Below are positions 3,814 to 44,092 of a stretch of 64,000 nucleotides of DNA, piece after piece; the stretch's first letter is position 1; every line of letters starts with the position of its first letter. The DNA lies in NCBI GenBank assembly GCA_947588755.1, contig CANPZB010000002.1, positions 7,954-71,953 on the forward strand. The letters are read 5' to 3'. Under the pieces are notes generated by a model. The model searched no databases and was not told the origin of the DNA. It saw only the letters and a program-made list of their open reading frames with translations. Made by a program: the position numbers and the translations under genes. The DNA is from Candidatus Gastranaerophilales bacterium. Its GTDB lineage: Bacteria; Cyanobacteriota; Vampirovibrionia; Gastranaerophilales; Gastranaerophilaceae.

Positions 3814-3934
3814 TACTTAACAAATAGAAAAAATTTTTGAAATCTATTTACAAATTATTTTTTTATGCTATAATCATTTTGAAAAAGATTTAATAATATT
3901 TTAGTATTAAATGAAAAATTAAAGGAGTTAGAGA

Positions 3935-5221
3935 ATGAAAAAATTTTTAGCCGGCCTTATGACATTCAGTTTTATCGCATTTAATACAGTTCCTGTATTT
4001 GCTGCGGTAAGTATTTCTGATGTCGGCCAAAACTACTGGGCAAAAACTGAAATTGTAGAAGTTGTTGAAGATGGTATTATGAGTGTTGATTCTTCAAACC
4101 GTTTCGCACCGGAAGAAGTAATGACCCGTGTAGAATTTGTTAAAGCTTTATTGAAAGTTTTGACAAATGACAATTTGGACGTAACAATTAAAAATCAATT
4201 CTCGGATGTTTCAAAAGCAAATCCGGATTATGACAACATTTTACGTTCTCAACAGTTAGGTTTGGTTTACGGTTATCCCAACGGTACTTTCCAACCCGGA
4301 AAAAATATGTTAAGATCTGAAGCTCAATCCGTAATCAGCCATATCACTAAGGATGCTACTACTGATACTTCCGTATTATCTCAATTTACGGATGCTGCAG
4401 CTGTTCCTACCTGGGCTAAAAAAGTCTATGCAAAAACTATAGGTTACGGTATTTATGTAAACTATCCCGATACAAGAGAATTGAGACCTTCAGACTGTCT
4501 TACAAGAGCAGAAGCTGCTGTTCTCCTTGCAAGATTAAAAGACAGATTAGGTCTTGTTAAAAAAGAATACCTCGGTTCTGATGCAATTCTTGCAGTAGAA
4601 CACTTGGATAAAGTAAGCAGAAAAGTTAAAAATGATGTTGTTAACATTACTGAAAGAAGCAATGTAATTACTAAAGACAATGTTATCCTTGTTGCATTTG
4701 ATGAAAAATTCAAACAAAAATTGAGTGCTACTGGTGATGTTGTTTCTTTCGTTGCACCTGAAGACCTTTATACTCAGGAAGGTACTTTGGTAATCCCTGC
4801 TAATTCTAAATTTACAGGCAAAGTTATCGATGTCACAAACCCGAAATGGTTCAACAAAAACGGTAGAGTTTACATTCAATTAGAACAACTTGTATTACCT
4901 TCAGGTCAAGTTTCTAAATTCTGTGCTAAACCTTTCTACAAAAATTATGAACTTAAAGAAGGTCCTTGGATGACAGCAGGTAAAATCTTACTTTACACTG
5001 TAAGCGGCGGTGCTGTTGGTACAGGTGCAGGTGTAGGTTTTGCCTTCATACCTGATCCTACAAAAATCGGTACAGGTATTGCTATCGGTGCTCCTGTAGG
5101 TGCTGCTGTCGGTTTAGTTACAGGTTTGGTAACTCCCGGCTTGAACTACAACGCTAAGAAAGGCGAAGAAATCGAAGTTATATTACTTGAAGATGCAAGT
5201 ATTGCAAAACAAGCTTTATAA
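3935..5221 (+). CDS. SLH-domain envelope protein with signal peptide and C-terminal Gly/Ala-rich hydrophobic segment
   Basis: Signal peptide MKKFLAGLMTFSFIAFNTVPVFA. Three SLH-like repeats (..NRFAPEEVMTRVEFVKAL.., ..FSDVSKANPDYDNI..GYPNGTFQPGKNMLRSEA.., ..LRPSDCLTRAEAAVLLARL). C-terminal GGAVGTGAGVGFAF..GIAIGAPVGAAVGLVTGLV. AAAGGAG RBS. Confidence 0.8.
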   Translation: MKKFLAGLMTFSFIAFNTVPVFAAVSISDVGQNYWAKTEIVEVVEDGIMSVDSSNRFAPEEVMTRVEFVKALLKVLTNDNLDVTIKNQFSDVSKANPDYDNILRSQQLGLVYGYPNGTFQPGKNMLRSEAQSVISHITKDATTDTSVLSQFTDAAAVPTWAKKVYAKTIGYGIYVNYPDTRELRPSDCLTRAEAAVLLARLKDRLGLVKKEYLGSDAILAVEHLDKVSRKVKNDVVNITERSNVITKDNVILVAFDEKFKQKLSATGDVVSFVAPEDLYTQEGTLVIPANSKFTGKVIDVTNPKWFNKNGRVYIQLEQLVLPSGQVSKFCAKPFYKNYELKEGPWMTAGKILLYTVSGGAVGTGAGVGFAFIPDPTKIGTGIAIGAPVGAAVGLVTGLVTPGLNYNAKKGEEIEVILLEDASIAKQAL

Positions 5222-5242
5222 TCTGTGATTTAAAAATAAACT

Positions 5243-5282
5243 GATAAGGGTACTACCTTCGGGTTAGTACCCTTATCTTTTT
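5243..5282 (+). terminator. rho-independent terminator after SLH gene
   Basis: 13-bp stem GATAAGGGTACTA / TAGTACCCTTATC with a 9-nt loop, followed by a T-run. Confidence 0.75.
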
Positions 5283-5370
5283 GTATCTCGTATTAAAGAT
5301 TAAAGACGATTACAATAATTGTGTAAATATCAATTTTACTTGTTTTAGTTATTAATTATGGGAGTACATT

Positions 5371-5742
5371 ATGAAAAAATTGTTTATTTCATTAGCTTTA
5401 ATCGGTGCGGTTGCATTTTCTTCTCAGGGAGCGTTTGCGGCATGGGAAGGTATTCAGTCCTTAAATCCTTTACCTTACCTGTCATACTTAAATCCGCTGC
5501 CATACTTCGGAATTGGTGAAAATAAAACCAATTTCAGCTTAAATCCTTTTAAAGGATTTAAAAATTGTGACAAATGTCAGGTAAGAAAGACAGAATGTAA
5601 TACTTGTACGGGTGCTGCCGCTCCGATATGTCCTAATTGTGTTAAAACATTTAATAATCAATGTTCACAATGCGGTAAAATTCCGGCTCCGAGAATTTAT
5701 GTACAGCAGCCGACCTGCCCTTGTATGAAAAACAGATACTAA
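5371..5742 (+). CDS. small secreted cysteine-rich protein (hypothetical)
   Basis: Signal peptide MKKLFISLALIGAVAFSSQGAFA. NPLPY repeats, then four CxxC pairs (CDKC, CNTC, CPNC, CSQC) plus CPC. GGGAG RBS. Confidence 0.65.
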   Translation: MKKLFISLALIGAVAFSSQGAFAAWEGIQSLNPLPYLSYLNPLPYFGIGENKTNFSLNPFKGFKNCDKCQVRKTECNTCTGAAAPICPNCVKTFNNQCSQCGKIPAPRIYVQQPTCPCMKNRY

Positions 5743-5764
5743 AAACTCAGCCCTCCATTATTTT

Positions 5765-5793
5765 AAAAGCCGTCTGTTGACGGCTTTTTTTTT
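5765..5793. terminator. bidirectional rho-independent terminator
   Basis: GCCGTC-TGTT-GACGGC hairpin flanked by an A-run and a T-run, between convergent genes. Confidence 0.7.
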
Positions 5794-6628
5794 ATAAATC
5801 CATATTTTTCAGTGTAACAAATATTTTATCAGTAATTTTTCTTATGTACTCCTGGCTTACCATTCCGTTTATAACTGCGTCAGAAATCTCATAAGCGGGG
5901 CGGATATACTGTTGAGCCGTTTTGTTAACATCTTGGAACTGTAAATCTGCGGCTTTCCCTGTTTTTCCTCTCAGAGCAGCTCTTTTGTACCATCTTTCTT
6001 TTATTACTTCAAGCGGGGTAAAGACGTAAACTTTAACGTCCATTATTTCGCGTAAACCTTCGTTAAGAACGTATAACCCTTCCGTTAATAATACTTTTGC
6101 GGGCTTTTTAACATCTCCGTCAGGGTCTGATTTGCATGTTACAAAATCATATTTCGGAGAAACGATTTCCACTCCGTTTTTCAAGTTGATTAGATGTTCT
6201 TTCATTAAATCAAGGTTAATAGCCTTCGGGGTGTCAAAGCTAAATCCCGTCTTGAATAATTCTTCGTAACTTCCCGCTTCTTCCAATTCTTTGGAAGTGT
6301 CTTTGTAGTAATCATCGCATCTTATAACTGTGTATATGCCTTCTTTTTTGCTTTTTACACAGGCATTAATCGTGTTATCAACAAAAACCGTTTTCCCCGA
6401 GGCACTTTCACCGGTTATTCCGATAAGAAATGTCTTTTTCTTTTCCTGAACGACTTTTCGTGCGATATTCATTATTAAATTGTCGGATATTTTCAAAAAT
6501 AGCGGTTGAACTTCTTTTTTATCTTCTTCCAAAATCTTTTTCAGAGCATCAACAATACTTGATATTACTTCCATATCGCGTCTGTTTGAATAGTAGTCAT
6601 AACTTGTTAATTTGAAATCATTGCTCAT
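5792..6628 (-). CDS. udk: uridine kinase / phosphoribulokinase-family P-loop kinase
   Basis: P-loop GITGESASGKTVF. Udk-like blocks IRCDDYYKD, FDTPKAINLDL, SPKYDF and LLTEGLYVL. About 60-aa N-terminal extension. Confidence 0.65.
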   Translation of the reverse strand: MSNDFKLTSYDYYSNRRDMEVISSIVDALKKILEEDKKEVQPLFLKISDNLIMNIARKVVQEKKKTFLIGITGESASGKTVFVDNTINACVKSKKEGIYTVIRCDDYYKDTSKELEEAGSYEELFKTGFSFDTPKAINLDLMKEHLINLKNGVEIVSPKYDFVTCKSDPDGDVKKPAKVLLTEGLYVLNEGLREIMDVKVYVFTPLEVIKERWYKRAALRGKTGKAADLQFQDVNKTAQQYIRPAYEISDAVINGMVSQEYIRKITDKIFVTLKNMDL

Positions 6629-6787
6629 ACTTCAATATTTCCCCGCAACTCCTTATTCTTTATATTTTACTGTAAAGTTGTTATAATATCTTACAATAAT
6701 GAATTTTTGTAACAATATTTTTTAAATTATTAAAGAAATTAAAAAATTTGCCGATATATTTCATGTAAAGAAAAAGAGGAGTATGTT

Positions 6788-6961
6788 ATGTATCATGACA
6801 AAATTTTTGAAAATGCGTTGAGTGAAGTTAAAAACGAAGGCTATACGGCTTTAAAAAATGAAATAGGTGCTATGGAAACCTTAATCGAAAAGTTTTTAAC
6901 AAAAATATTTGAATCTACTTCGGGTATATCGGAAAGAGATTTCAATTTAACTTCAATGTAA
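6788..6961 (+). CDS. small hypothetical protein (57 aa, below the ORF-track cutoff)
   Basis: Hand translation MYHDKIFENALSEVKNEGYTALKNEIGAMETLIEKFLTKIFESTSGISERDFNLTSM. AGAGGAG RBS 6 nt upstream of the ATG. A terminator hairpin follows directly after the stop. Confidence 0.5.
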   Translation: MYHDKIFENALSEVKNEGYTALKNEIGAMETLIEKFLTKIFESTSGISERDFNLTSM

Positions 6962-6987
6962 AAAAGCCTCAATGAGGCTTTTTTTTA
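6961..6987. terminator. bidirectional rho-independent terminator
   Basis: AGCCTC-AAT-GAGGCT hairpin with a flanking A-run and T-run, between the 57-aa ORF and the convergent 409-aa gene. Confidence 0.65.
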
Positions 6988-8217
6988 TTATGAATGTTTT
7001 TTCTTTGATTTTTCTTCTTTTTCGTAAATTTCAGCTAATTGGTTAAAGTTGTATATTGCTGCTTGTGTGTTAAGGTCAGGGTTTACTTTGTTTTCTTCAA
7101 TTCTTTTTGCCGTAAGGCTCAAGATTTTTTTTGCATTATCAGGACTTTTTATGGCTTCATTAGCTGCCTGAATAGATTGTTTTTCCATGTGTCTTTCAAG
7201 TTCTGTCGGGCCTAATGCTTTGTTAAGGCATTTTCTTGTCAGATAACTTGTTGCAAATCCTGCCGCAACTCCTATAAATCCGCCTATAGCCGTACCTATT
7301 GCCGTTCCTATCGGGCCGCCTATTGCTGTTCCTATCGTTGCTCCGATTTTTGCACCAGCAATTCCTCCGACTTTCATACCGACTGCAAAGCTTGCCGCTT
7401 CGGCACCGGCAGTTAAAGCGGCTCTGCCGAGTTGTCTTGTACCTGCCGCACTTCCGCATGTTTTGTATGTTTTAACTATTTCAGGTGTTTGTGCCGCAAA
7501 TGCTATTGCCGCATAAAGTCCGTTACCGCCTTTTAAAAGTTTGGTGCTTTTTCTGAACAACGGTGAACTTACTGATTTTTCCGCTATTTTTTTATTCAAA
7601 TAATTATAGCCTGTATATTTTTTAACCGAAGCTAACGCTTTTCCTCTTAAAGTTACAGGCTTGATTAAACCTGCTTCTTTTGCCTTAATAACATCCAAAT
7701 TGGCTTTTGCTACCGCTTCATCGATTTTGTTCAAATATCCTTTAAGTTCAGTACCTTTTGCGGATTTTGCTTCTTCTATCAATGTTCTGACATCTTTGTA
7801 ATATTCTGATTTTGCCAATTTATTGTTGAATTTAAGAATATTATTAGGACTCATTTTTTTCATTTCTTCGGGTGTAAGTCTTTTAATTTCCGAATATTTG
7901 CCTGCAAGACTTTCTATTTCCCCGTTTCTTTCTAAGTAAAGTGCATTTTTAAATATATTGTTGCTTTTAATTTGTTGTTTTCTCAATTTTCTAAGTTCTG
8001 CAGCTTTTTTTAATTCTTCCCAGGCATTGGAATAATTTCCCTTATTTGAAATAAGCCAGTTACCGCCTTTTAAAGCTTCACCGCCAAGGCAGAGAGTGCC
8101 AGCAAATGCTATATCCCGACCGATTGACCCCTGCTCAACTCCTGTCAGACTTCCGCCTAACCCGTAGTAGGCTGCTTTTCTGTATAATTCATGTAACTGA
8201 ACAGTGTTTACTGACAT
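6988..8217 (-). CDS. hypothetical membrane protein with long glycine-zipper segment
   Basis: 409-aa ORF. K/E-rich helical N-part, then GGIAGAKIGATIGTAIGGPIGTAIGTAIGGFIGVAAGFA (about nt 7252-7368), then a polar C-terminus. No signal peptide. N-terminus resembles the next gene. Confidence 0.7.
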   Translation of the reverse strand: MSVNTVQLHELYRKAAYYGLGGSLTGVEQGSIGRDIAFAGTLCLGGEALKGGNWLISNKGNYSNAWEELKKAAELRKLRKQQIKSNNIFKNALYLERNGEIESLAGKYSEIKRLTPEEMKKMSPNNILKFNNKLAKSEYYKDVRTLIEEAKSAKGTELKGYLNKIDEAVAKANLDVIKAKEAGLIKPVTLRGKALASVKKYTGYNYLNKKIAEKSVSSPLFRKSTKLLKGGNGLYAAIAFAAQTPEIVKTYKTCGSAAGTRQLGRAALTAGAEAASFAVGMKVGGIAGAKIGATIGTAIGGPIGTAIGTAIGGFIGVAAGFATSYLTRKCLNKALGPTELERHMEKQSIQAANEAIKSPDNAKKILSLTAKRIEENKVNPDLNTQAAIYNFNQLAEIYEKEEKSKKKHS

Positions 8218-8321
8218 TTTCTATATCTTTCCCCGTTAATTTATTTAATATCCCCTTATATAATATATAAAAAATTTTATCGGTTAATTATTGCTTATTC
8301 CGAAAGAAATGTTAACAAATG

Positions 8322-8357
8322 TAAAAAACAGGTACTGTATAATACCTGTTTTTTTAA
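8322..8357 (-). terminator. rho-independent terminator downstream of 8376..9200
   Basis: AACAGGTA / TACCTGTT 8-bp stem flanked by an A-run and a T-run. Confidence 0.65.
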
Positions 8358-8375
8358 GTTATTTATTGCTTTAAT

Positions 8376-9200
8376 TTAAACATAAGTGTTCAAATTGAGT
8401 CCGTAGCCGCCGGCAAGAGCATTTTGTATCTGCATTAACTGTTCTTTTGTCATTGTCGGATTGTATATAGACGGGTCAAACATATTAAATGAAGTATTAT
8501 TTACATTTGATGTGTTGTTATTGTTCACGTTATTTGCGTTTTTAGCTTCTGCAGTGCGTTCGGAATAACTTTTCCCGACTATTTTTCTTGTAATTAAATC
8601 ACCGATTATGTAACCTACGGGTGCTCCCAGCGGCCCTAAAAGTGCTGCAGCTATTGTACCGAGAACCATGCCGCCGCCAAGTCTTGCACCTGCCTTTACG
8701 ACTTCAGCCATACCGGATACAATGCCTTCATTTGCCGTTGCTTTAATTATATTCGGAATTTCCGTTAAAACTATTAACGCAGTACCTATTAAAGGCAATC
8801 TTTTTCCAAGACCTTTAAAAAATCCTTTTGTTCCGCCCCAGAATTGATTTTTTCCTGCTTTAGCGGCTTGTTTGCTTCCTTCTTTTACGGCTTTGCGTAT
8901 TACTTCGGGAGTGGTTTTTATTGCTTCCTTTGTACTTTTCCAAAAACCGCCATGTTCTTTAATTAATGTTTCATTATGTCTTTCGCCTGCTTTGAAAGCA
9001 TCTTTAAGCTGTGTCCAAAAATCTTTGAAATATTTCCCGCCTGTTCTTTTACCTGCGCCTTTTTTAACACCGTAAAAAGAGTCTTTTAAGGTTTGTGTTA
9101 CCGTTTCCGCACCCGTTCCCAGAACCAAATCAGGATAAAGTCGTAATGCTTTTTTACCGTAATGTGAAATATCGTTTAATGTAACAGAACCGATACCCAT
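8376..9200 (-). CDS. hypothetical membrane protein with hydrophobic helix plus Gly/Ala zipper, N-rich tail
   Basis: 274-aa ORF with LPLIGTALIVLTEIPNII and GARLGGGMVLGTIAAALLGPLGAPVGYIIGDLI. Asn-rich C-terminus. N-terminus MGIGSVTLNDISHYGKKA.. parallels MSVNTVQLHELYRKAA.. of the neighbouring gene. Confidence 0.7.
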   Translation of the reverse strand: MGIGSVTLNDISHYGKKALRLYPDLVLGTGAETVTQTLKDSFYGVKKGAGKRTGGKYFKDFWTQLKDAFKAGERHNETLIKEHGGFWKSTKEAIKTTPEVIRKAVKEGSKQAAKAGKNQFWGGTKGFFKGLGKRLPLIGTALIVLTEIPNIIKATANEGIVSGMAEVVKAGARLGGGMVLGTIAAALLGPLGAPVGYIIGDLITRKIVGKSYSERTAEAKNANNVNNNNTSNVNNTSFNMFDPSIYNPTMTKEQLMQIQNALAGGYGLNLNTYV

Positions 9201-17428: not shown

Positions 17429-18883
17429 ATGGAATATATAGAAAACAGAGAAGTTGAAAAAGAACAGTTAAAAGCGATATTTAAGGATATTTTAAAATAT
17501 TCACCTTCCAAATTATGCGGAATGCTGGGGAACGCTGTTATTGTCCCTGTTTATACAAGCTTGTTGTCGCCCGAACAATACGGCTTATACTCTATTTCTA
17601 TAGCACTTTTATCCTTCTTATGTATTCTGTTTTCGGATTGGGTTGGATTATCCGCTTTGAGATTTTTCCGCAGACATCAGTTAACCGACGATATGCCAAG
17701 ATATTTAACTACTATTGTTATGATTTTGTGTATAAATCTCTTTTTAATGCTGTTAATAACTTTTATATTCAGGGATAATTTTTATTCCTTTTTCAAAATA
17801 CCCGTAAAATATTTTTTGGCTATATTAATTCTTATTTTACCTGTTGCTGTCAGAGCGTTGCTTTCTCAACTCTTAAGAGCACAGCTTAAATCTTTGTCTT
17901 TTACGTTAACAACCATAGTTAATCAGTTTTTAACAATCTTATTATCCGTGTTTTTTGTAAAATTCTTTAATTTAGGTGCCATGGGTTTGCTTCTGGGTAT
18001 GGGTGTTTCTATATCTTTAATTGATTTACTTTTGATTTATCAGAGTAATATTTTAAAATGGTTTAAGTTACAAAAAATCGAGTGGCATTCCGTAATGCCT
18101 GTATTCAAATACGGTGTTCCGATTGCTGCAACTTCTTTAAGTGCATGGATTATTAACCAGAGTAACAAGTTTATTATGAACAGTATACACGGTTTTTCTC
18201 AGGTCGGTATTGTAGGTGTTGCTTACGGTTTAACTTTACCTCTGTTAATGACGGTATTTTCGGTTATTACCGTTGCCGCTATACCGAGAATAATTAATAT
18301 GTACGAAGAAAAAATTGATGTAAGACCTATTGTGTCACGTTTTACCGGATATTATATTTTAACGGCATTACCGATAATTACTATTATATCGGTATATTCT
18401 GTTGATTATGTACAATTACTTTCTTCCAACGAGAACTTTTATATAGCTTTCAAATTAATCCCGTATTTTGCTTTCGGCACATTTTTCATGGCTTTGACGG
18501 ATTACACAACATTGCAATATCATCTGGCTAACAAGACTTATATTGACTTCATTATAAAGTTAATATCAGGGATTATAAATATTGCGATGAATATAATTTT
18601 AATTCCAAAATACGGTTTGGTCGGTGTGGGAATTGCAACGCTTTGTGCTAATTTTATTTACTTTTTCCTGAGTGCCGTTATTGTTTTGCCGGGGTTGAGA
18701 ATAAAATTTCCCGTTGCGGCAATGTCTAAAATATTTATTTCCTTCATACCTTTTGCCGGCGTATATTATCTTTTCAGACAAACTGAAAATATACCGGCAT
18801 TATTTCAGATGATAATTTTAGGCGGAATTTTCTATTTAACTTATTGGCTTATCAGTGCTGCCCTTAATAAACGTGCGGTTTAG
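17429..18883 (+). CDS. polysaccharide/oligosaccharide flippase (MOP/Wzx family)
   Basis: 484 aa and strongly hydrophobic, with roughly 12-14 predicted TM helices in the typical Wzx layout. Confidence 0.65.
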   Translation: MEYIENREVEKEQLKAIFKDILKYSPSKLCGMLGNAVIVPVYTSLLSPEQYGLYSISIALLSFLCILFSDWVGLSALRFFRRHQLTDDMPRYLTTIVMILCINLFLMLLITFIFRDNFYSFFKIPVKYFLAILILILPVAVRALLSQLLRAQLKSLSFTLTTIVNQFLTILLSVFFVKFFNLGAMGLLLGMGVSISLIDLLLIYQSNILKWFKLQKIEWHSVMPVFKYGVPIAATSLSAWIINQSNKFIMNSIHGFSQVGIVGVAYGLTLPLLMTVFSVITVAAIPRIINMYEEKIDVRPIVSRFTGYYILTALPIITIISVYSVDYVQLLSSNENFYIAFKLIPYFAFGTFFMALTDYTTLQYHLANKTYIDFIIKLISGIINIAMNIILIPKYGLVGVGIATLCANFIYFFLSAVIVLPGLRIKFPVAAMSKIFISFIPFAGVYYLFRQTENIPALFQMIILGGIFYLTYWLISAALNKRAV

Positions 18884-19087: not shown

Positions 19088-21826
19088 ATGATTAAATCAG
19101 TTAAAAAGGGACAGAAGTTAAGTGCCGCAATATTAACGGTTTTACTTATAATGCAGCAATCTTTTTGTGTGCAGGTAATGGCCTCCCAAATATCAGGAGT
19201 TCAAGGAACACAAAACCCTAACGGGCCGGGACAAATATTTGATATTGAACCTACTGCCAAAAACGGTGATATAGGATTTAGAAAATACAAAAATTTTGAT
19301 TTAAGCGAACAAGATATTGCTAACCTTATTTTCAAATACGGTCAGGATAATGTGGAAAAATTCGTTAACCTTGTTTCTAATCAGGTTAATATTCAAGGTA
19401 TTTTGAATACAATGCGTGACGGCAATTTTTATAACGGTCATGCGGTATTTATTTCACCAAACGGTGTTGTTGTAGGTGCAAGCGGTGTTTTAAACGTAGG
19501 CTCTCTTTCCGTTTTAACTCCGACACAAGAAAGCTTTGATAAACTTAAAGGTGATATAGATAATCAACCTAACCTTATTCAAAATTACGAATCCGCACTT
19601 GTTCCCGGTAACGGTGCCGTAAAAATTGAAGGTAAAGTTATTGCACGTGATTTGGTTGATATAAAAGCTGCTGATGTTAATGTTACACCTAACGGAACAG
19701 TTTTTTCCGGTGTTAATGATGTTACTGCCCTGAATTCACGTAATCAAGCCGAACTTTTATTTAATAATCTTGTTAACACAAGTAATATGACAGACGGAAA
19801 TACTTTTGAAAGCGATAAGGGCAGTATTTCAATAAAATCTTACGGTGCTGACGGCGGTTCAAAAATCGAAGGCGAACTTAAAAACTTCGGTAAAGGTGAT
19901 ATTAAAATTTCAAACAGTGGAAGCAAAGGTGTTGATGTAACAAAAAATATTTCCAATAAAAACGGAAGAACGGTAATTGAAAATACGGGTAACGGAGGAA
20001 TTAAAATCAGCGGAATTATTAATTCAAAAGGTATTGATATTAATAACTCCTCATCTGACGTTTTGATAGGTGATAATTCCGATAAAAATAATTATTTAAC
20101 ATCTTCTGCCGATGTAAATATCAATATACAAAACGGAAACCTTTTAAATAATTCGGGTTCCGTAAAAACGCTTATTAAAACTACCGATAACGGTAATTTG
20201 AATATCAGCGTTCAAAACGGTAAAATCGGTGAAGAAGTCGGGCCTTGTGACGGCGGTATTTGTACGGGTATTGGCGACGGCGAAAGAGATTTAACAAAAT
20301 CCGTTAATACTTCAATCGACGGTAAAATAAATGCAAAAAGTACCGGCTCAAATTCAGTTATTAATATGGCAAGTCTTGATAAGGATATGCACATTGACAA
20401 AATAGAATCCGACGGCAGAGTTATTCTTCTTGCCGATACTGCCGATTTATCCCAAAAGGGAACCGTGGCTTATGATGTTTTAAATTATTCGTCTGATAAT
20501 ACTCAGCCAAATGTCAAAGGTAAAGGAATTTCAATTATTTCAAGCGGCAATATCGGAAGTGTGGACAAAAAATTAACTTTTGTCCAAACTGCGGGAGATT
20601 TTAATGATACTGCATGGAATGCCGATAAAACAAATTATACGCCTGATGCACAATACGGTGTTGAAATGCTTGCAATAAAAGATATTAATGTTAAAGGTCT
20701 TGATAATGCGGACGGTACGAAAAGTGACACTAATGTATGTGCTATGATTTCAAAAGAAGGCAGTATTAATGCTGAATTTTCAGGTGATACATATATCAGA
20801 GAAATAAATGCGGATAAAAATATTAATTTGACAACTCTCGGTAATAAAATGTATATCGAAAATCTCGGTACTACACCTACGTATTCTCAAGATTACTACG
20901 GGCCTAACGGAAATGTATCTCCCGACAGAGTTAAAATTTCCGCACTGGATTTAGGAACTTCATGGCCTGATAATCCTGCTGATTCAACCGTTGTAATCAA
21001 AAACGGCAGTATAGGCGGTGACGGTAATCTTCGCCCGAGTGCAGATCAGGATTTGACTGTGGCGGCAGACAATGTTTATGTTGACGGTAAACATTTCCAC
21101 ATGGGTAATGACAGAAACGGCGGGCCTTCGTTTGTCGAAGATGATGCTTCAACAAATCGTTTAACAAATCCTTCTCAAGATAAGGAAGTTTCTATAAGAG
21201 TAAAAGCGGTAAGACCGAATGATGTTGAAGCTGCGGGACATAACCGTAACGAACGTAATTACTATTACGGCGGAAGTTCACAAGGCGGTAATTCCGACTA
21301 TGATGTCGACGGTAATCCTTTGCCTGATGAACAAAAAGGCGGTGAAAATGATGATGATAACATTGTAGTTCCGTCAACAGGTTCTGTACCGACGGCAAAT
21401 AATGATAATACAATGTCATCCGACGATGTATACCGCGATTTGTGGAAACAAAGATTAGCTGAGGACAATGTTGATTCTATTGATAAACGTCAATACATGA
21501 GATTTAGCGTTGAAAACAACAGACATCCCGTTTCGCTTGCTCAAAACGCTCAAATCGACAGTTTGATAGATATTTCCAGAGGCGGTGTAGCAGTACATCA
21601 TAACCATACTTTAAAAGTAGGTGATGTTGTCCCCGTTAAAATTAACTACGGAAATCTGGCAATTAATACAGATGTTAAAGTAGTTACGGCGTCTGACAGG
21701 AGAGCCGGTGCGGAATTTATAAATCTTGACCAAGCGACCGCTAACAAACTTCTGTATATGAATGTTATGTTGGAAGAAGCTGAAACGGCTATGTTGAACA
21801 AACAAAACCTGTCTTATAATAAATAA
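19088..21826 (+). CDS. secreted TPS (haemagglutination-activity) domain protein with C-terminal PilZ domain
   Basis: Signal peptide MIKSVKKGQKLSAAILTVLLIMQQSFCVQVMA. TPS-like block FRKYKNFDL..NLVSNQVNIQGILN..AVFISPNGVVVGASGVLNVGSLSVLT. G/N/D-rich passenger. C-terminal RQYMR..(22 aa)..DISRGG plus a beta-barrel pattern. ATG 19088 preferred over the track TTG 19019. Confidence 0.75.
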   Translation: MIKSVKKGQKLSAAILTVLLIMQQSFCVQVMASQISGVQGTQNPNGPGQIFDIEPTAKNGDIGFRKYKNFDLSEQDIANLIFKYGQDNVEKFVNLVSNQVNIQGILNTMRDGNFYNGHAVFISPNGVVVGASGVLNVGSLSVLTPTQESFDKLKGDIDNQPNLIQNYESALVPGNGAVKIEGKVIARDLVDIKAADVNVTPNGTVFSGVNDVTALNSRNQAELLFNNLVNTSNMTDGNTFESDKGSISIKSYGADGGSKIEGELKNFGKGDIKISNSGSKGVDVTKNISNKNGRTVIENTGNGGIKISGIINSKGIDINNSSSDVLIGDNSDKNNYLTSSADVNINIQNGNLLNNSGSVKTLIKTTDNGNLNISVQNGKIGEEVGPCDGGICTGIGDGERDLTKSVNTSIDGKINAKSTGSNSVINMASLDKDMHIDKIESDGRVILLADTADLSQKGTVAYDVLNYSSDNTQPNVKGKGISIISSGNIGSVDKKLTFVQTAGDFNDTAWNADKTNYTPDAQYGVEMLAIKDINVKGLDNADGTKSDTNVCAMISKEGSINAEFSGDTYIREINADKNINLTTLGNKMYIENLGTTPTYSQDYYGPNGNVSPDRVKISALDLGTSWPDNPADSTVVIKNGSIGGDGNLRPSADQDLTVAADNVYVDGKHFHMGNDRNGGPSFVEDDASTNRLTNPSQDKEVSIRVKAVRPNDVEAAGHNRNERNYYYGGSSQGGNSDYDVDGNPLPDEQKGGENDDDNIVVPSTGSVPTANNDNTMSSDDVYRDLWKQRLAEDNVDSIDKRQYMRFSVENNRHPVSLAQNAQIDSLIDISRGGVAVHHNHTLKVGDVVPVKINYGNLAINTDVKVVTASDRRAGAEFINLDQATANKLLYMNVMLEEAETAMLNKQNLSYNK

Positions 21827-21843
21827 TAAAAATAATTATTAAC

Positions 21844-21886
21844 AAAAAAAAGAAGATAAATAAAAATTTATCTTCTTCTTTTTTTA
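21844..21886. terminator. bidirectional rho-independent terminator
   Basis: AGAAGATAAAT-AAAA-ATTTATCTTCT hairpin flanked by an A-run and a T-run, between convergent genes. Confidence 0.7.
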
Positions 21887-23647
21887 TGCATATTTTCTTG
21901 CCAGATATTGACTTACGCCGTTTCTGTATTTATTGTTCCGTTGAATTAATGCTATTGCCGTGGGGCTGAGTGTTGTATCATGATATGATGCATATTGTAC
22001 TACATTGTTTTGAGCAGGCATAATTCTACCCAGAGTTGAACCGAGTGCTTGAATATTATTTCCTAATTTCTGCATTTTTTCTATGGCTTTTTTGTCAAAA
22101 GTAAATTTTTTGACATTTTTACCGACTGTTTTTCCTGCATTTTGCGTTGCAGTTTGTGTTGCTTTTGCAGTTACATTATTTAATGTGTTGTCAGCTTTGT
22201 TTCCTGCGGCAGTCAATGCACCCTTGTAAGAATGAATATCTGCTTTAGACATTTGTTTTTGAAGGCTGGCAGCTGTTTCTTTGCGTGCTTCTCTTTTGGA
22301 TAATCCGCCTAACGCTTCTTTGGCGGCTTTTCTGCTCATACCGTTTGTTTTTTCATCTATAACCTTTTTGGCTGCTACGTTTGCGGCAAGCTTTTTGGTG
22401 GCACTATCTGCCTGTTTATTTATGGCATCAAGACTGTTTGCCATATTTGCGGAATTCCCTATAGCCGATGCTCCTATGCTGACGGCACTTGCGGCACTTG
22501 CAAATGCCGCGGTAATATTTCCTTCCGCCGCATAGCCTGCCATTTTGGTAATTCCTGCGGCTGTTTGACCGTACTGACCTACATTTTCCGCAATTTTACC
22601 GATTTTTTGCATAACTTTACCCGTCGCAATTAAGGCTTGACCTGCTCCCGGGAAGGCGGTTAATGCACCTCCCAGAGCTACAAGACTAAGCCCGGCATAG
22701 TTCAGAGCCTGTCCGGTTTGTGCTACCAAGCCGCTTACTTGCTCAATTGTATCAGCAACTTTTATGGCTTTTTGTGCAGTTGTCTCATTATCTTTCATCT
22801 GTGTTTGATAGTTGCTGTTTGTCTGAACAAATGTCGTCGACATTTTGTTCATATTTGTAATTGCACGTGATGAATTCTTTTGCAGGGTATATATCTGTTT
22901 GCTGCTTCTGTTCATTAATTGAATTTTTGTACCAAGCTGTTTTTGCAGTATCTGTATTCTGTCATTGTCAGAGTTGTCTTGAGGTCCGAATTCATTTACG
23001 GCATTGCCTATTGATAAAGAAAAGGCACTTGATTTACCGACCCCTGTTTTATCTGCATTTAACAGTGAATTTAATTCTTGCGACATTTGGTCAAATTCAC
23101 TCTGATTTTGATTTAAATTATTTGTTTCCTGCCTTATACCGTTCCGGTTACTTGTTATAGTTGATTGCTCTTGTTTAATTGCTGCTTCGAAAGTACCTTT
23201 GTCAGAGTCAATATTTCCTTTAAGTTTACTGCTCTGGCTTGCATAGAGTTTCATTGTTTGGGTACTTGATTCGGTTTGTTTGGTAAGTTCTTTTACATTG
23301 TCTTTTTGTTTGCTGACCTCGTTGGCAGCAGCTTTACCGTCTGCGGCATTGTCAATGTTGCTGTACTTACCTGCAGGGTTGTTTTCTTTGGGTGAGCCTG
23401 AGGCTGTTTTTTTCGGTAATGTAGTGTTAAATATTGATGACTGCATATCGTTAACACTTTTTTGCGTGTTTAATCTGACTGTTTGATTTGAAGTGTTAAG
23501 TGCATTAGGACCCGCAGCAAAAATTGAACCGTCGGATTTCATCCATTGCGGTTTTTGTATTAGTGTACTTGTACCGCCCTTCTTTTTGCTTAGGGCAAGT
23601 CTTACAAGTTCACTCGAATTTAGTCCTGGTGTGATACTTACAGTCAA
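21884..23647 (-). CDS. large Q/N/S/T-rich hypothetical protein with central Ala/Gly-rich hydrophobic region
   Basis: 587-aa ORF. TTG start preceded by AGGAGA 6 nt upstream. Long polar helical N-half. Hydrophobic stretch LNYAGLSLVALGGALTAFPGAGQALIATG..AAFASAASAVSIGASAIG. No signal peptide. Confidence 0.65.
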   Translation of the reverse strand: MTVSITPGLNSSELVRLALSKKKGGTSTLIQKPQWMKSDGSIFAAGPNALNTSNQTVRLNTQKSVNDMQSSIFNTTLPKKTASGSPKENNPAGKYSNIDNAADGKAAANEVSKQKDNVKELTKQTESSTQTMKLYASQSSKLKGNIDSDKGTFEAAIKQEQSTITSNRNGIRQETNNLNQNQSEFDQMSQELNSLLNADKTGVGKSSAFSLSIGNAVNEFGPQDNSDNDRIQILQKQLGTKIQLMNRSSKQIYTLQKNSSRAITNMNKMSTTFVQTNSNYQTQMKDNETTAQKAIKVADTIEQVSGLVAQTGQALNYAGLSLVALGGALTAFPGAGQALIATGKVMQKIGKIAENVGQYGQTAAGITKMAGYAAEGNITAAFASAASAVSIGASAIGNSANMANSLDAINKQADSATKKLAANVAAKKVIDEKTNGMSRKAAKEALGGLSKREARKETAASLQKQMSKADIHSYKGALTAAGNKADNTLNNVTAKATQTATQNAGKTVGKNVKKFTFDKKAIEKMQKLGNNIQALGSTLGRIMPAQNNVVQYASYHDTTLSPTAIALIQRNNKYRNGVSQYLARKYA

Positions 23648-37833: not shown

Positions 37834-40203
37834 TTAGTCTTCCGGTGTTAATTGTGACATCGCAGGATCTAATAATCTTCTTCCTATGGTTGTATTTTGA
37901 AAACTGATTGAATAGAGTGTTTTGTTACCGTATTTAATATGTTTTTCTATCACACCTTTTCCGTATCTCGGATGAATAACGGTTTGACCCGGTTCAAGTA
38001 ATTCCGTTTCACCTTGCTCCGTATCTTCTGAAAAATATTCGGGCAAAGGCTCATCGGATTTGCCGTTTTCTTCATCAATGTCATCCTGACCGTTTTGCAG
38101 AAATTCTTCCGTTATGGAATCTTTATTGTTTTCCTTTTCAATTATTGCATTTGCGGCTTCAAGAAGAACATCCGTTGAAACCGATTCTGAATTTACATCT
38201 TCGTTTAAATCGTCAATGTAATCCAAATCCGCTTCGGTAAGTTCATCTTGGACTATATCAATATCAGGAAGTTCTTCCTCTATATTTAATTCATCATCAA
38301 TATCTTCAATTATGGTCTGTTCTGCCGGACTTTGTTCAGTTTCTTCATTTGCAGACGTTACATCAGGAATTTCGTTATCAAGCGGAAGTTCTTTTTCGCC
38401 GTTATCAACTGCCGTTTCAACAAGCGGCTCTGTTTCGACAATTGGCTCAGGTTCTATGGCAGGTTCTTCCGCAGGGATTTCCGATGTACTTTCAGGAACA
38501 TTTATTAAAGGTTCTTCGTAAGTTTCAGCAACAGATTTATCATTATCATCTAAATCACCGGTTAAGTTTTCATCAGGAGAAGTTTTTTTTTCTTCAATGT
38601 TTTCTTCAACCGATTTTTCCGTTGTTTCAATATTTTCAGCAGTAGCCGTTTCCGATTTAATTTGAGGCTGTTCGGGTATTTCCGCCGTTTGAATATTTTC
38701 AACAACGGGGGTTGGTTCAATTGTGTCCGAATTTATTTCTAAAAGAGGTTCTTCCGATAACTCCAAAACAGGCTCCCGCAAAATTAATTCAGGTTCCTGA
38801 ATTTCTTCCTTTACCGTAATATTTTCTTTTATCGGACTATTTTCCATTTGTGTATCAGATGTTTCGGCTTCGTGAGGAGTTTTTATTTCTTGTGCCGGTT
38901 TGATTTCTTCGGCAGGTATTGTTTTCGCAACCTCTTTTGGTTCTTGATTTTCCGATGGTGCTTGTGCTGTTTCATCAGGAATATTTTCTGTTTCGTTGTC
39001 AAAACCGAGTTTGTGTAATTCGACAATTAAAGGAATATTCTGTGTAAGTCCGCCGTAAATAATAAATTCATCGGGGTTCAGTTTGTTTAAAAATGTATTA
39101 TATGCCGCAAAATCATGCTGCATTGTAAGTGGTGCAAAGAATATTATATTTTCCGCATTTTCCTTTATCTCTGCAATATATTTATAATTATGACCGCAAA
39201 TTATGCTTGACATAACATTTTTACCGCCAAAAAGCAGTTTTTTGAGCAGTACTTTTGTAATTACGTTATTTTCTGCTTTTACAAACGAATATATGACAGA
39301 TTTTATCCTGGACATAACATCATACGCATAAGATATTATTTCATTTTGAAGATTTACATCATAGTCGGAAATGTCAATAACGGTAATGCATTCTTTTTCT
39401 ATCGCTATTGAAAGATTAAGAATATCTTTTAAATCCTGTGCGAAAACTTTTTCATCTCTGTATTTTAACAATTTATTTTTTAAAAGAAGCAGTTCACTGA
39501 TACCGGTTTGTTTGTATTGTTCATCAATAACCGAAAAGAAAGTGTCAAAAGGTATAAATCCTTCAGGCAAAGTTTTTGTATATTCCTGTAATTCAAGAAG
39601 AATTTCCTGAATAAGTGCTTTTGCGGATGTATCAATGTCATTCAGTTCATTTTCATAAATGTAATTTATGGTATCATAATTCAGCGGTAGTTTGAAATTT
39701 TTGCCGAATTTAATTTTATTTGTCCAGTCAAATTCGCCGTTTGTATCAAAAATAACACAGGTCTGCTGCATTTTTTCCATTTGTTTAAGAATGTTATCCA
39801 GCAATATATTTGTGTTTTCCGTTTTATTTGAACAAATTAAAAGATTATTTTCAAATATTGTTTTATCGACATATAAATTATAATTTTCATGCATAAGTTT
39901 ACCGACCGTAACAGGAGTTTCGACAGGTAAAATCTCAAGCAGTTCTTTTGCGGGGAGTTTTGAAACGTAAGCCTTAATTGAGGGAATAGTACCGTCATAA
40001 CTTTTTAAAATACCTTCGTTATTAAAAGTGAAAAGTAATTTTACTATGGCAAAATTCGATGAAATATCAGCTTTTGTATTTATAATCTGACCGACATAAG
40101 GAGTATTTTCATCTTCTATAACTACAAATCCGGACATAGCAAGATTATCTTTTACATCGTAAGCTATCTTAACTAAATTATTTTTAATTTCCAGTACTTT
40201 CAT
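37834..40203 (-). CDS. HerA/DUF87-like protein with degenerate P-loop, long acidic disordered linker and PcrA/UvrD-type Tudor C-terminus
   Basis: The N-terminal 400 aa are collinear with HerA, including the HAS-barrel-like start. NLLICSNKTENTN sits where hhhG.TGSGKS is expected, followed by CVIFDTNGEF. About 340 aa are E/P/T/I-rich. C-terminal GQTVIHPRYGKGVIEK..ISFQN..RRLL. Confidence 0.55.
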   Translation of the reverse strand: MKVLEIKNNLVKIAYDVKDNLAMSGFVVIEDENTPYVGQIINTKADISSNFAIVKLLFTFNNEGILKSYDGTIPSIKAYVSKLPAKELLEILPVETPVTVGKLMHENYNLYVDKTIFENNLLICSNKTENTNILLDNILKQMEKMQQTCVIFDTNGEFDWTNKIKFGKNFKLPLNYDTINYIYENELNDIDTSAKALIQEILLELQEYTKTLPEGFIPFDTFFSVIDEQYKQTGISELLLLKNKLLKYRDEKVFAQDLKDILNLSIAIEKECITVIDISDYDVNLQNEIISYAYDVMSRIKSVIYSFVKAENNVITKVLLKKLLFGGKNVMSSIICGHNYKYIAEIKENAENIIFFAPLTMQHDFAAYNTFLNKLNPDEFIIYGGLTQNIPLIVELHKLGFDNETENIPDETAQAPSENQEPKEVAKTIPAEEIKPAQEIKTPHEAETSDTQMENSPIKENITVKEEIQEPELILREPVLELSEEPLLEINSDTIEPTPVVENIQTAEIPEQPQIKSETATAENIETTEKSVEENIEEKKTSPDENLTGDLDDNDKSVAETYEEPLINVPESTSEIPAEEPAIEPEPIVETEPLVETAVDNGEKELPLDNEIPDVTSANEETEQSPAEQTIIEDIDDELNIEEELPDIDIVQDELTEADLDYIDDLNEDVNSESVSTDVLLEAANAIIEKENNKDSITEEFLQNGQDDIDEENGKSDEPLPEYFSEDTEQGETELLEPGQTVIHPRYGKGVIEKHIKYGNKTLYSISFQNTTIGRRLLDPAMSQLTPED

Positions 40204-41887: not shown

Positions 41888-44092
41888 ATGTACGAAAATT
41901 CCGTCAATCAAAGATATCAGGTACCTTTGCAGGCAATTTATCCTGAACAGATACGTGAAGCAGTTAATGCTTCACAGCAGCAGGCTGCAATGCAAGGTAT
42001 TGATTCCGAGGCTTTGAAACAAAGAGTTGAAGATAATTATACGGTAAATCGTGTTTCGGATGTGGCATTCCCTAAAGAAACAAAAGAGTTACTGGCACAG
42101 TATGCACTTGCCGTTCCTATATGGTACGGCTTATCTCAGTCAATGGATGTTTTTGCCCGAAAATGCAGAGGAGAATATAAAGATACCATTCAGTACAGAA
42201 TTGGAAATCTGGGCGACAGAATGGTCGATAAGTTTAACGGTACTCGTTTGGGTAAATCAAGTGCGGTGAGCGGAATTAAAAACGGTGTTAAATCGTTAAG
42301 CGGTTGGCTTAATCGTAATATTGTACAAAAATCTGCCGTGTTGAGAGCGTTTACTTCAACACCTTCAACACCTTATCATAAGATGGTTGACTCGCAAGCA
42401 AAAAGTATGATTGGTTTTCTCGGAATGGACTACCCGCAGATTACCGAAAATTTTGTTAAGCCTTTGAAGTATGCGGAGGATTTAGATTGTTACGGGGCTG
42501 ACAAGAATTTTATTCAAAAGATAAAAAATCAACTGGCTAACGCACCTGATGCTTCCGCAAAAAAAATGATATTGGAACAGGCTGAATTTGAACTTGTTGC
42601 ACCTAAAGGCAATAAAGCTAAATTTGCATCTCTGCCCGAAGCTAAGCGTGCAGAAGCTTTAAGAAACCTTAAAGCACGTCGTTTCGGTTTTAATAATATA
42701 AAGCACATGGAAAAATTAATGAAGCATCCTCATGAAAATGTTGATGAATTAATAAAATGTTTTCAAAAAGCCGATAAAAATATGTATTCCAAAATTTGGG
42801 TGCATGATAACAGCCGTATTAACAAGGTTAAAGGTCACTTAATCGGCAGAAAAGTTTATGCTTCCGAATGCGCAAACAAATTTATCGGTTCACTGGGTAA
42901 GAAAAATACGTTTCATAAATCATGGATAGGTAAAATGATGCCTAAATTGAGTAACATTTTCCTTGAAGGTGCTACAAACAGGGTTGCCGGCGGAAAACTT
43001 GTTGCCGCTATGCAAGCATTTTTCCTTGCGGAATGTTTGATTAAAACTGCTCAGGCACAAGGCGTAAGTGAAAAAGTAAAAACTTTTGCGGAAAGATTTA
43101 CCGAACTTGTAGGATTTTTTATTGCAACACCTATAGCTATTCAACTTCTGCATAAAATGGGCGGTATTCAATATGCCGGTATTTCCGAAAGTTTTGTTAA
43201 GGAAGCACTTACTAAATTCAAAGGTAAAAAGTTGTCTGCCGAAGAATTAAATGCGGCTCAAAAAGTTATAAAAGATTTTCAGGAGGCTTGCAAAACCATG
43301 AAACCTCATGAAGCTTACGTAAAAGTTTTGAAAGAATTTAACAAAAGTGCTTTTGCAGCCGAATTTACAAAAGCACAACACAAAGGCGGTTTCAAGGCTT
43401 TAAAATTCTTAAGAAAAGGCGATACAAGAAATCCGATAACCAAATTGTTTAAAAAGGCGGCACGTGTAATAACGGTCGGACTTGAACAAATTGCACCTTA
43501 TCGTAAAAAAGGTATTACGGTATTTGAAGGCGGTTTCTTCAAACAATTAAAAACGGTTGCACTTGATTTATTTAAGCATCCTAAATATTGGCTTAAACAG
43601 GGGGCAGGTTATCCGATGAGATTTTTACTAGTAATGATGTCTATAATGCCGTTTATCAATAATTTAGGCGTAAAAGCCATACATAAAATTTTCGGACGTC
43701 CCGAACATTCGGTACTGGATAAAGAAGAAGATGAAAATGAAAAGAATAATCCTGCAAAGAATTTCCCCGCACAACCGATTGCAGGAATTCCGATAGAGGG
43801 AACAGTTTCACCCGAGACACTGAATAATTCCAATTATATTAAAAAATACATGAACGGCGAAGCGGTAAATTCTTCATCATCAGCACCTGTCAGAAGTTAT
43901 ATACCTTCACCGGAAAGAGTTAAACTCGATAATGATGAGCCTTTAAGAACTTATGTTCCCTCTCCGCAAGGTGCTTTGATTAATAATAACACGGATACTT
44001 CGGCTGCGGATGCCGCTTTAATGCGTGCGGACGCGGTTGAAAAAAACGTAATGGAAGTTTTGGGAATTGAAGGTAAATCATCCTTATTTTAA
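41888..44092 (+). CDS. large hypothetical membrane-associated protein
   Basis: 734-aa ORF with a GGGA RBS. K-rich helical regions. Hydrophobic segments (LVAAMQAFFLAECLI, LVGFFIATPIAIQLL, MRFLLVMMSIMPFI). P/S/N-rich C-terminal tail. Confidence 0.65.
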   Translation: MYENSVNQRYQVPLQAIYPEQIREAVNASQQQAAMQGIDSEALKQRVEDNYTVNRVSDVAFPKETKELLAQYALAVPIWYGLSQSMDVFARKCRGEYKDTIQYRIGNLGDRMVDKFNGTRLGKSSAVSGIKNGVKSLSGWLNRNIVQKSAVLRAFTSTPSTPYHKMVDSQAKSMIGFLGMDYPQITENFVKPLKYAEDLDCYGADKNFIQKIKNQLANAPDASAKKMILEQAEFELVAPKGNKAKFASLPEAKRAEALRNLKARRFGFNNIKHMEKLMKHPHENVDELIKCFQKADKNMYSKIWVHDNSRINKVKGHLIGRKVYASECANKFIGSLGKKNTFHKSWIGKMMPKLSNIFLEGATNRVAGGKLVAAMQAFFLAECLIKTAQAQGVSEKVKTFAERFTELVGFFIATPIAIQLLHKMGGIQYAGISESFVKEALTKFKGKKLSAEELNAAQKVIKDFQEACKTMKPHEAYVKVLKEFNKSAFAAEFTKAQHKGGFKALKFLRKGDTRNPITKLFKKAARVITVGLEQIAPYRKKGITVFEGGFFKQLKTVALDLFKHPKYWLKQGAGYPMRFLLVMMSIMPFINNLGVKAIHKIFGRPEHSVLDKEEDENEKNNPAKNFPAQPIAGIPIEGTVSPETLNNSNYIKKYMNGEAVNSSSSAPVRSYIPSPERVKLDNDEPLRTYVPSPQGALINNNTDTSAADAALMRADAVEKNVMEVLGIEGKSSLF

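Follow-up and report, generated by a model that had tools for sequence, protein, structure and literature searches.

A 64,000-nucleotide (nt) stretch of DNA from Candidatus Gastranaerophilales bacterium (contig CANPZB010000002.1, assembly GCA_947588755.1), here called the window and numbered from its first letter, codes for a filamentous adhesin of 912 amino acids (aa) that is predicted to be exported by two-partner secretion (TPS) and that ends in a PilZ domain, the predicted receptor of the second messenger cyclic di-GMP (c-di-GMP). TPS adhesins and PilZ domains are each known; the new part, as read from the sequence, is a TpsA adhesin with a built-in predicted c-di-GMP receptor. The fusion suggests a direct tie between the display of the adhesin and c-di-GMP. 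Our preferred reading, which we put forward tentatively, is that the c-di-GMP-stabilised PilZ domain acts as a cytoplasmic stopper, so that the adhesin would be held on the cell at high c-di-GMP and released at low c-di-GMP.

The protein is encoded by a single unbroken open reading frame (ORF; 19088–21826, + strand), which contains no N and has a GC content of 0.371, against 0.352 for the whole window. The listed frame opens upstream, at TTG 19019; ATG 19088 is the likely start, since a GAAAGGG Shine-Dalgarno-like motif 8–14 nt 5' of it, a promoter-like TTGGTA-18-TATAAT element that precedes it and the N-termini of homologues all agree on this position. The first 32 residues were assigned as a Sec-type signal peptide by a heuristic reading of the n-, h- and c-regions and of the V-x-A cleavage site. 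Every member of the family begins with such a short signal peptide, which bears a QQS motif, and A32 and I35 are conserved at 90% or more in an alignment of 67 sequences. A lipobox occurs in one of 131 family members. We considered and rejected Tat export of a folded PilZ-nucleotide complex, because a Tat-like motif is likewise limited to one of 131 members and RR is absent from the window protein.

The secretion domain that follows is of the LktA/FxxPxG type. The NCBIfam profile NF012204 (adhes_FxxPxG / leukotoxin LktA family filamentous adhesin) matches residues 51–201 with an E-value of 4.3e-46, whereas the Pfam TPS profile Haemagg_act (PF05860) gave no match to the 912-aa protein at E-values up to 1. 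A search of the PDB by sequence with the N-terminal 337 residues returned only spurious ankyrin/DARPin matches caused by low-complexity G/N repeats. We also built an AlphaFold2 (AF2) model of the whole protein on 67 homologues, with a mean predicted local distance difference test (pLDDT) score of 88.3. In this model residues 6–25 form the helix of the signal peptide, and a Foldseek comparison with the PDB matched the model to the TPS domains of HxuA (4i84), EtpA (8cpk), HMW1 (2odl), FHA (1rwr) and HpmA (5kkd). The original prediction of a TPS-type N-terminus is thus upheld by NF012204 and by the fold, although the profile it had named, PF05860, fails and the domain is the LktA/FxxPxG variant. 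Beyond this domain the model forms a long right-handed beta-helix, and the top PDB match of the whole is the full-length TpsA protein HxuA (4rt6_A, E = 6e-6).

PilZ is the sole Pfam domain detected in the protein. PF07238 matches with an E-value of 2.1e-9 and 38 bits (cut-off 22.5), covering profile positions 2–96 of 102, and residues D799, K800, R801, R805, S830, R831 and G833 are invariant in the 67 aligned sequences, in which the mean column identity is 25%. The D/NxSxxG motif aligns with the LLDLSAGG segment of Alg44. In the AF2 model the domain is a small beta-barrel (about residues 803–880), which Foldseek matched with a probability of 1.00 to c-di-GMP-bound PilZ structures, namely MapZ (5xly), YcgR (5y6g/5y6f), Alg44 (4rt0/4xrn) and BcsA-type PilZ (4i86); template-modelling (TM) scores (target) against the PilZ folds of 5xly, 4q63, 5y6g, 4xrn, 4rt0 and 4i86 were 0.54–0.75. 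A PDB sequence search with this part gave only marginal E-values, so that the evidence for PilZ is carried by the Pfam profile and Foldseek. It appears from these matches that the C-terminal PilZ is a predicted c-di-GMP receptor domain with all binding motifs intact. The original prediction had claimed a Sec signal peptide, a beta-helical passenger and a canonical PilZ domain with its RxxxR and DxSxxG motifs. The sequence regions and family conservation bear out the first, and the AF2 model and the HxuA fold match the second; the third proved exact to the nucleotide, with PF07238 above its gathering score and the barrel fold obtained in the structure prediction that had been suggested for the C-terminus.

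Between the helix and the PilZ domain lies a spacer, part of which is disordered, with pLDDT below 50 across residues 766–802. Measured from NYYYG, the last conserved motif of the helix, to RxxxR, the spacer is 70–405 aa long in relatives (median 193), and their linkers are rich in D (34%), T (17%) and P (9%), with DTDTD or PTEPT repeats. That of the window protein, at 72 aa, is of the shortest kind, and about 37 of its residues are disordered in the AF2 model. No hydrophobic segment divides the helix from PilZ, and the maximal 19-residue hydropathy beyond the signal peptide does not exceed 1.75 anywhere in the family. Because there is no transmembrane segment between PilZ and the exported part, the location of PilZ depends on how completely the protein is exported.

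The fusion is widespread. A word-indexed search returned 1707 relatives, and most of the best 120 of these bear a precomputed PilZ match; an exhaustive search over 1.84 billion cluster representatives gave 690 matches at E-values up to 1e-3 and 173 at E-values up to 1e-30. According to a scan of GTDB species genomes, the family is found almost wholly in gut metagenome-assembled genomes of Candidatus Melainabacteria / Gastranaerophilales. There are several adhesin paralogs per genome, and the complete genome CP017245.1 holds two. In NCBI such proteins are named merely 'leukotoxin LktA family filamentous adhesin'. PilZ is present in 123 of the 201 relatives of at least 600 aa, its end always lies within 60 aa of the C-terminus, and both binding motifs are kept in 118 of the 123. 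It is also the best-conserved segment, ungapped, with a mean identity to the window protein of 60%, compared with 47% for the TPS-like domain and 45–50% for the helix.

Two technical explanations were considered together: that the fusion arose by mis-assembly or a frameshift, or that the hydrophobic N-terminus fails to act as a signal, which would leave the protein in the cytoplasm. The databases contain many short 'stand-alone' PilZ proteins (100–220 aa, 50–71% identical to the C-terminus of the window protein, one of them annotated 'membrane PilZ domain protein Epm44'), which would seem to speak for a mistaken fusion. However, the entries that we inspected start inside the linker repeats or at the first Met beyond them, and at the four loci checked (L087–L090, about 3900–8400) the short PilZ calls lie 3' of runs of 55–100 N, with the adhesin body uncalled upstream and in the same syntenic position as the adhesin gene. 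A separate cytoplasmic PilZ gene was therefore rejected: at these four loci the short entries are fragments of the adhesin gene beyond scaffold gaps in the repeat linker, and as such they lend no support to it. Database entries of the Epm44 type can thus be adhesin fragments. The ORF in the window is free of N and frameshifts, and more than 100 independent assemblies show the same fusion, among them CP017245.1 in both of its copies, so that an assembly or frameshift artefact, which had been named as a possible refutation, is excluded. Retention in the cytoplasm fits poorly with the conserved signal peptide and TPS-like domain and with the existence of TpsB partners, and we regard this pair of explanations as very improbable.

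Those partners were found at distant paralogs. Three of them, P0321 (5093 aa), P0288 (6025 aa) and P0326 (1948 aa), have a signal peptide, an FxxPxG-type N-terminus and a C-terminal PilZ; only P0321 was itself searched with NF012204 and PF07238, the PilZ of P0288 being a weak precomputed match and that of P0326 resting on the motif pattern. Each lies head-to-head with a protein of 608–613 aa that bears POTRA_2, ShlB and Omp85 domains. These three TpsB proteins are 50–67% identical to one another and 27–29% identical to the TpsB of Selenomonas described below. P0321 lies on a contig from an organism closely related to that of the window, with 85% identity in SmpB, 80% in a radical-SAM/BATS protein and the same gene order. 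A TolC-like OEP gene (L093 6463–7752) adjoins one TpsB gene, and homologues of it, 49–53% identical, lie just 3' of adhesin-PilZ genes in L028, L049, L055, L057, L066, L075 and L084. Directly 3' of the 6025-aa PilZ-ending TpsA there is a gene for an OmpH/Skp periplasmic chaperone (L095 22833–23303).

A further member with a TpsB neighbour is known outside the order. On the Selenomonas ruminantium plasmid pSRC1 (NC_017078.1), a ShlB/FhaC/HecB-family protein is encoded directly 5' of an annotated LktA-family adhesin, which shares its N-terminal domain with the window family (E = 1e-13). This adhesin and the Fusobacterium necrophorum LktA family (NF012204) have the same FxxPxG N-terminal secretion domain as the window protein; unlike the window gene, the Selenomonas gene has an adjacent TpsB, and its product ends in a Hint domain (intein/hedgehog-type autoprocessing; L097 3–1172) rather than in PilZ. 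The pairing of this N-terminal domain with ShlB/FhaC-type TpsB proteins in Selenomonas and beside the three Gastranaerophilales-type paralogs further backs the TPS assignment, and by these comparisons the family appears to be a genuine two-partner-secretion family with a genuine TpsA and TpsB architecture. The topological paradox noted in the original prediction, an exported passenger joined to a domain whose ligand is cytoplasmic, is therefore real, since three paralogs of the same architecture adjoin a genuine TpsB and no membrane anchor separates the two parts.

Since the Selenomonas member ends in Hint, the C-terminal modules differ between LktA-family lineages, and one might suppose that PilZ is simply the payload of this lineage, either delivered into another cell as in CdiA or displayed as an extracellular tip that binds c-di-GMP or a similar ligand. 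TpsA/CdiA proteins are generally known to carry C-terminal modules that reach the cytoplasm of target cells. The C-terminus of the present family, however, is highly conserved instead of polymorphic, Pfam detects no PT-VENN domain, no receptor-binding or translocation regions were identified, and there is no small immunity-like gene on the 3' side, where the next gene encodes a convergent 587-aa protein. We consider a payload improbable. A VENN tetrapeptide inside the PilZ domain (residues 808–811, nt 21509–21520) was tried as a sign of a CdiA-like protein and rejected as a coincidence, being unconserved in relatives and without a PT-VENN match.

How such a protein might work can be outlined as follows. 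Synthesis would take place in the cytoplasm, the N-terminus would pass SecYEG first and the TpsB pore next (for the window protein this TpsB would be encoded elsewhere and act in trans), and the helix would fold outside the cell. PilZ would be the last part synthesised. At high c-di-GMP it would fold round the nucleotide in the cytoplasm and become so stable that SecA could not unfold it; the C-terminus would then stay behind and the adhesin would be held on the cell, its acidic linker and final helix turns spanning the envelope. When c-di-GMP falls, PilZ without its ligand would be pulled through by SecA and the adhesin would be freed. That the residues in contact with the nucleotide are so strictly conserved speaks for a continuing importance of nucleotide binding, which requires a cytoplasmic phase. 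In most members PilZ also sits behind a stalk-like spacer, the position that anchors occupy in other adhesins. A GGDEF gene lies near one paralog and a MshEN-type pilus ATPase is also present in the clade; c-di-GMP signalling exists in this clade. Of the three options offered by the original prediction, the best fit is a C-terminus by which c-di-GMP gates or delays export, whereas the invariant nucleotide-binding residues weaken extracellular repurposing, and the conservation of the signal peptide together with the TpsB partners weakens lack of export. It is possible, if rather doubtful, that the family represents a natural ligand-gated translocation arrest, in which the folding state of the stopper decides whether the protein is parked from Sec to TpsB across the envelope or let go. 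We see a fair, though less than even, chance that adhesin-PilZ proteins work by a mechanism so far undescribed in nature.

A laboratory precedent for such an arrest is available. In proOmpA-DHFR with methotrexate, a ligand-locked C-terminal domain arrests translocation through SecYEG with negligible ion leak (PMC4148884); it resembles the proposed stopper in this respect and differs from it in being an artificial construct. In BcsA and Alg44, both fold matches of the window PilZ, a canonical PilZ domain makes it depend on c-di-GMP whether a polymer crosses the inner membrane; there the polymer is a polysaccharide and PilZ is part of the membrane machinery, whereas here PilZ would ride on the exported protein itself.

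Several points weigh against a cytoplasmic stopper. c-di-GMP binding, export and tethering are all properties that we infer for the window protein. Cargo parked in SecYEG is normally harmful in Escherichia coli. The flexible linker comprises only about 37 residues in the AF2 model of the window protein and is almost lacking in the TpsB-linked giant paralogs, so that spanning the envelope would need part of the last helix to be unfolded. RxxxR has been lost in five of the 123 PilZ-bearing relatives, and in the tandem arrays of two to three adhesin paralogs (L050, L072, L076 and L079) the last copies are in some cases without PilZ, although several of the copies without it end at a contig end; PilZ is thus not indispensable. 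Finally, no TpsB gene was found beside the adhesin at 85 related loci (1.65 Mb) outside those of the giant paralogs, when we combined clustering of neighbours, a heuristic for outer-membrane proteins (a signal peptide plus an aromatic residue at the C-terminus), and tblastn searches seeded with TpsB proteins of Selenomonas and Gastranaerophilales. As the original prediction had stated, there is none in the window either, according to Pfam on all ORFs of at least 409 aa and tblastn with two TpsB seeds. Because no TpsB adjoins the window gene or these related loci, the use of a TpsB in trans has to be assumed, and the window protein is probably best read as a dispersed paralog served in this way.

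The jamming of Sec would be avoided if the whole protein crossed the inner membrane and PilZ refolded in the periplasm as a plug that cannot pass the TpsB pore, with c-di-GMP uninvolved. In Bordetella, the C-terminal prodomain of FhaB stays within the envelope while the protein is secreted and governs how it matures and is released (see Nash and Cotter, as cited in PMC8472254), and it is generally known as a precedent for periplasmic retention, as is, by likeness, the retention module of LapA; the FhaB prodomain differs from PilZ in being about 1200 aa long, periplasmic, degraded and without a nucleotide-binding domain. A spacer followed by a globular domain would also suit an anchor. Within TPS there is the C-terminal disulfide hook of CdrA as a precedent (PMC8472254). 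Such a plug, however, needs neither RxxxR nor D/NxSxxG, yet both are invariant or nearly so in a family of low overall identity, and PilZ is the segment that has been conserved best. This explanation is therefore unlikely in our view, though clearly ahead of a payload.

The conserved binding motifs, which imply a cytoplasmic step, would also be met if PilZ and c-di-GMP acted only before export, PilZ being exported or degraded afterwards. The domain might bring the pre-protein to SecA, to some cellular location or to a partner, for instance one of the neighbouring proteins, or it might hold the pre-protein in an export-incompetent state. PilZ domains commonly act through protein-protein contacts, and MapZ, which acts on CheR1, and YcgR are among the fold matches; furthermore, large unannotated membrane or coiled-coil proteins are conserved next to the adhesin, those of the type called N605 (about 600 aa) at 28 loci including the window and those of the N1015/N926/c76 superfamily at about 30. 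Nevertheless, a licensing role leaves the obligate position of PilZ at the extreme C-terminus, behind a stalk-like spacer, unexplained; no partner was identified, and the model of N605 is uninformative. We rate a purely cytoplasmic role as slightly less likely again than the periplasmic plug, and the cytoplasmic stopper remains the reading that we prefer.

Control of adhesin retention by c-di-GMP is a central theme of biofilm biology. To our knowledge, in the cases that have been worked out the cytoplasmic signal reaches the exported adhesin either by a relay (LapD/LapG) or by a route not yet known (ExlA). CdrA, of the type Vb CdrA/CdrB–LapD/LapG system of Pseudomonas aeruginosa, is a TpsA that is retained by its C-terminal hook, cut by LapG under the control of LapD and released at low c-di-GMP (PMC8472254). 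It is like the window protein as a beta-helical TpsA adhesin with a C-terminal element, a likeness of mechanism only, but there the signal is relayed from the inner-membrane receptor LapD to the periplasmic protease LapG, whereas here the receptor domain would be the C-terminal element itself; no LapD or LapG came to light, no search aimed at them having been made. For the P. aeruginosa TPS pore-forming toxin ExlA/ExlB, high c-di-GMP is reported to keep ExlA, by a post-translational effect, in or at the outer membrane; a PilZ domain is absent from ExlA, and its authors call the pathway indirect and unknown (PMC8472254). The outcome proposed here would match the logic of CdrA, LapA and ExlA, kept at high c-di-GMP and shed at low, with the difference that the sensor is part of the cargo.

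Our literature search on PilZ with two-partner secretion, TpsA, filamentous hemagglutinin and Melainabacteria turned up no description of PilZ fused to a TPS protein or an adhesin, and a term search in Galperin and Chou's PilZ survey also found none; the original prediction had likewise been aware of no such architecture. In an entire order of bacteria, uncultured and living in human and animal guts, the predicted receptor is fused to the cargo. If our reading is true, it would provide a one-polypeptide, protease-free link between a second messenger and adhesion at the surface, the first known case of a PilZ domain that acts on the export of its own protein, and one of few concrete functional leads on the surface biology of Gastranaerophilales. 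Should the conserved residues work as suggested, the family would be a minimal system for the control of type Vb substrates by a cytoplasmic nucleotide. One may further ask whether a single parked protein can span both membranes.

Table 1 Features of the adhesin-PilZ gene and of its immediate neighbours in the window
Feature	Position (nt)	Strand	Basis or remark
Whole gene, LktA-family TpsA-like adhesin with predicted C-terminal PilZ domain	19088..21826	+	912 aa plus stop
Sec-type signal peptide, residues 1–32 (predicted)	19088..19183	+	K-rich n-region, h-region LSAAILTVLLIM, V-M-A before predicted cleavage at A32/S33
Right-handed beta-helix passenger, residues ~35–760	19190..21367	+	AF2, pLDDT mostly >90
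TPS-like secretion domain, LktA/FxxPxG type, residues 51–201	19238..19690	+	NF012204
FxxPxG motif, F121-I-S-P-N-G126	19448–19465	+	P124 and G126 invariant
Acidic disordered linker, residues 766–799	21383..21484	+	AF2
PilZ domain, residues 800–888	21485..21751	+	PF07238
RxxxR motif, R801 QYM R805	21488..21502	+	Invariant in 67 sequences; in 118/123 PilZ-bearing relatives
D/NxSxxG motif, D828 I S R G G833	21569..21586	+	In 120/123 PilZ-bearing relatives
C-terminal alpha-helix after PilZ barrel, residues 882–908	21731..21811	+	AF2
Wzx/Polysacc_synt-type flippase, directly upstream	17429..18883	+	Pfam
N605, convergent 587-aa coiled-coil protein with Gly/Ala-rich hydrophobic hairpin	21884..23647	-	Matches no known family

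The flippase gene upstream of the adhesin recurs in the family. It adjoins the adhesin gene, upstream on the same strand, in 44 of the 85 related loci, and a copy that is 45% identical (L095 1103–2572) adjoins the TpsB of a giant paralog. A functional link between flippase and adhesin is possible, and the flippase may serve glycosylation of the Thr-rich stalk or a linked polysaccharide.

Nearly every adhesin-PilZ locus has a large unannotated neighbour, either of the convergent N605 type, with a coiled coil and a Gly/Ala-rich hydrophobic hairpin, or of the N1015/N926/c76 superfamily. N605 itself had no match in Pfam, its only NCBIfam match was SMC at 19 bits against a cut-off of 567 bits, and a sequence search of the PDB returned no relative; its AF2 model is all-helical with a pLDDT of 48. 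Members of the N1015/N926/c76 superfamily are 900–1200 aa long (for example L003 6049–9096, L004 6535–9711 and L086 6631–9846) and match no known family. In the two members that we read, an N-terminal coiled coil is followed by KRxLHVLK with a hydrophobic segment, beta-rich repeats and a second hydrophobic segment. Homology between the N605 and N1015 families was not detectable by hhalign, and any link between N605 and the adhesin would be conjectural.

Other genes of the window were also recorded. A 789-aa protein (37834–40203, - strand), whose C-terminal half is very acidic and Glu/Pro-rich, and a 734-aa protein (41888–44092, + strand) have no match in Pfam or NCBIfam, and a 409-aa protein with a long glycine-zipper segment (GGIAGAKIGATIGTAIGGPIGTAIGTAIGG; 6988–8217, - strand) has none in Pfam. 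SLH-domain proteins are outer-membrane tethers in Cyanobacteria and Negativicutes, and the presence of one in the window (3935–5221, + strand) is therefore consistent with a diderm envelope in the window organism.

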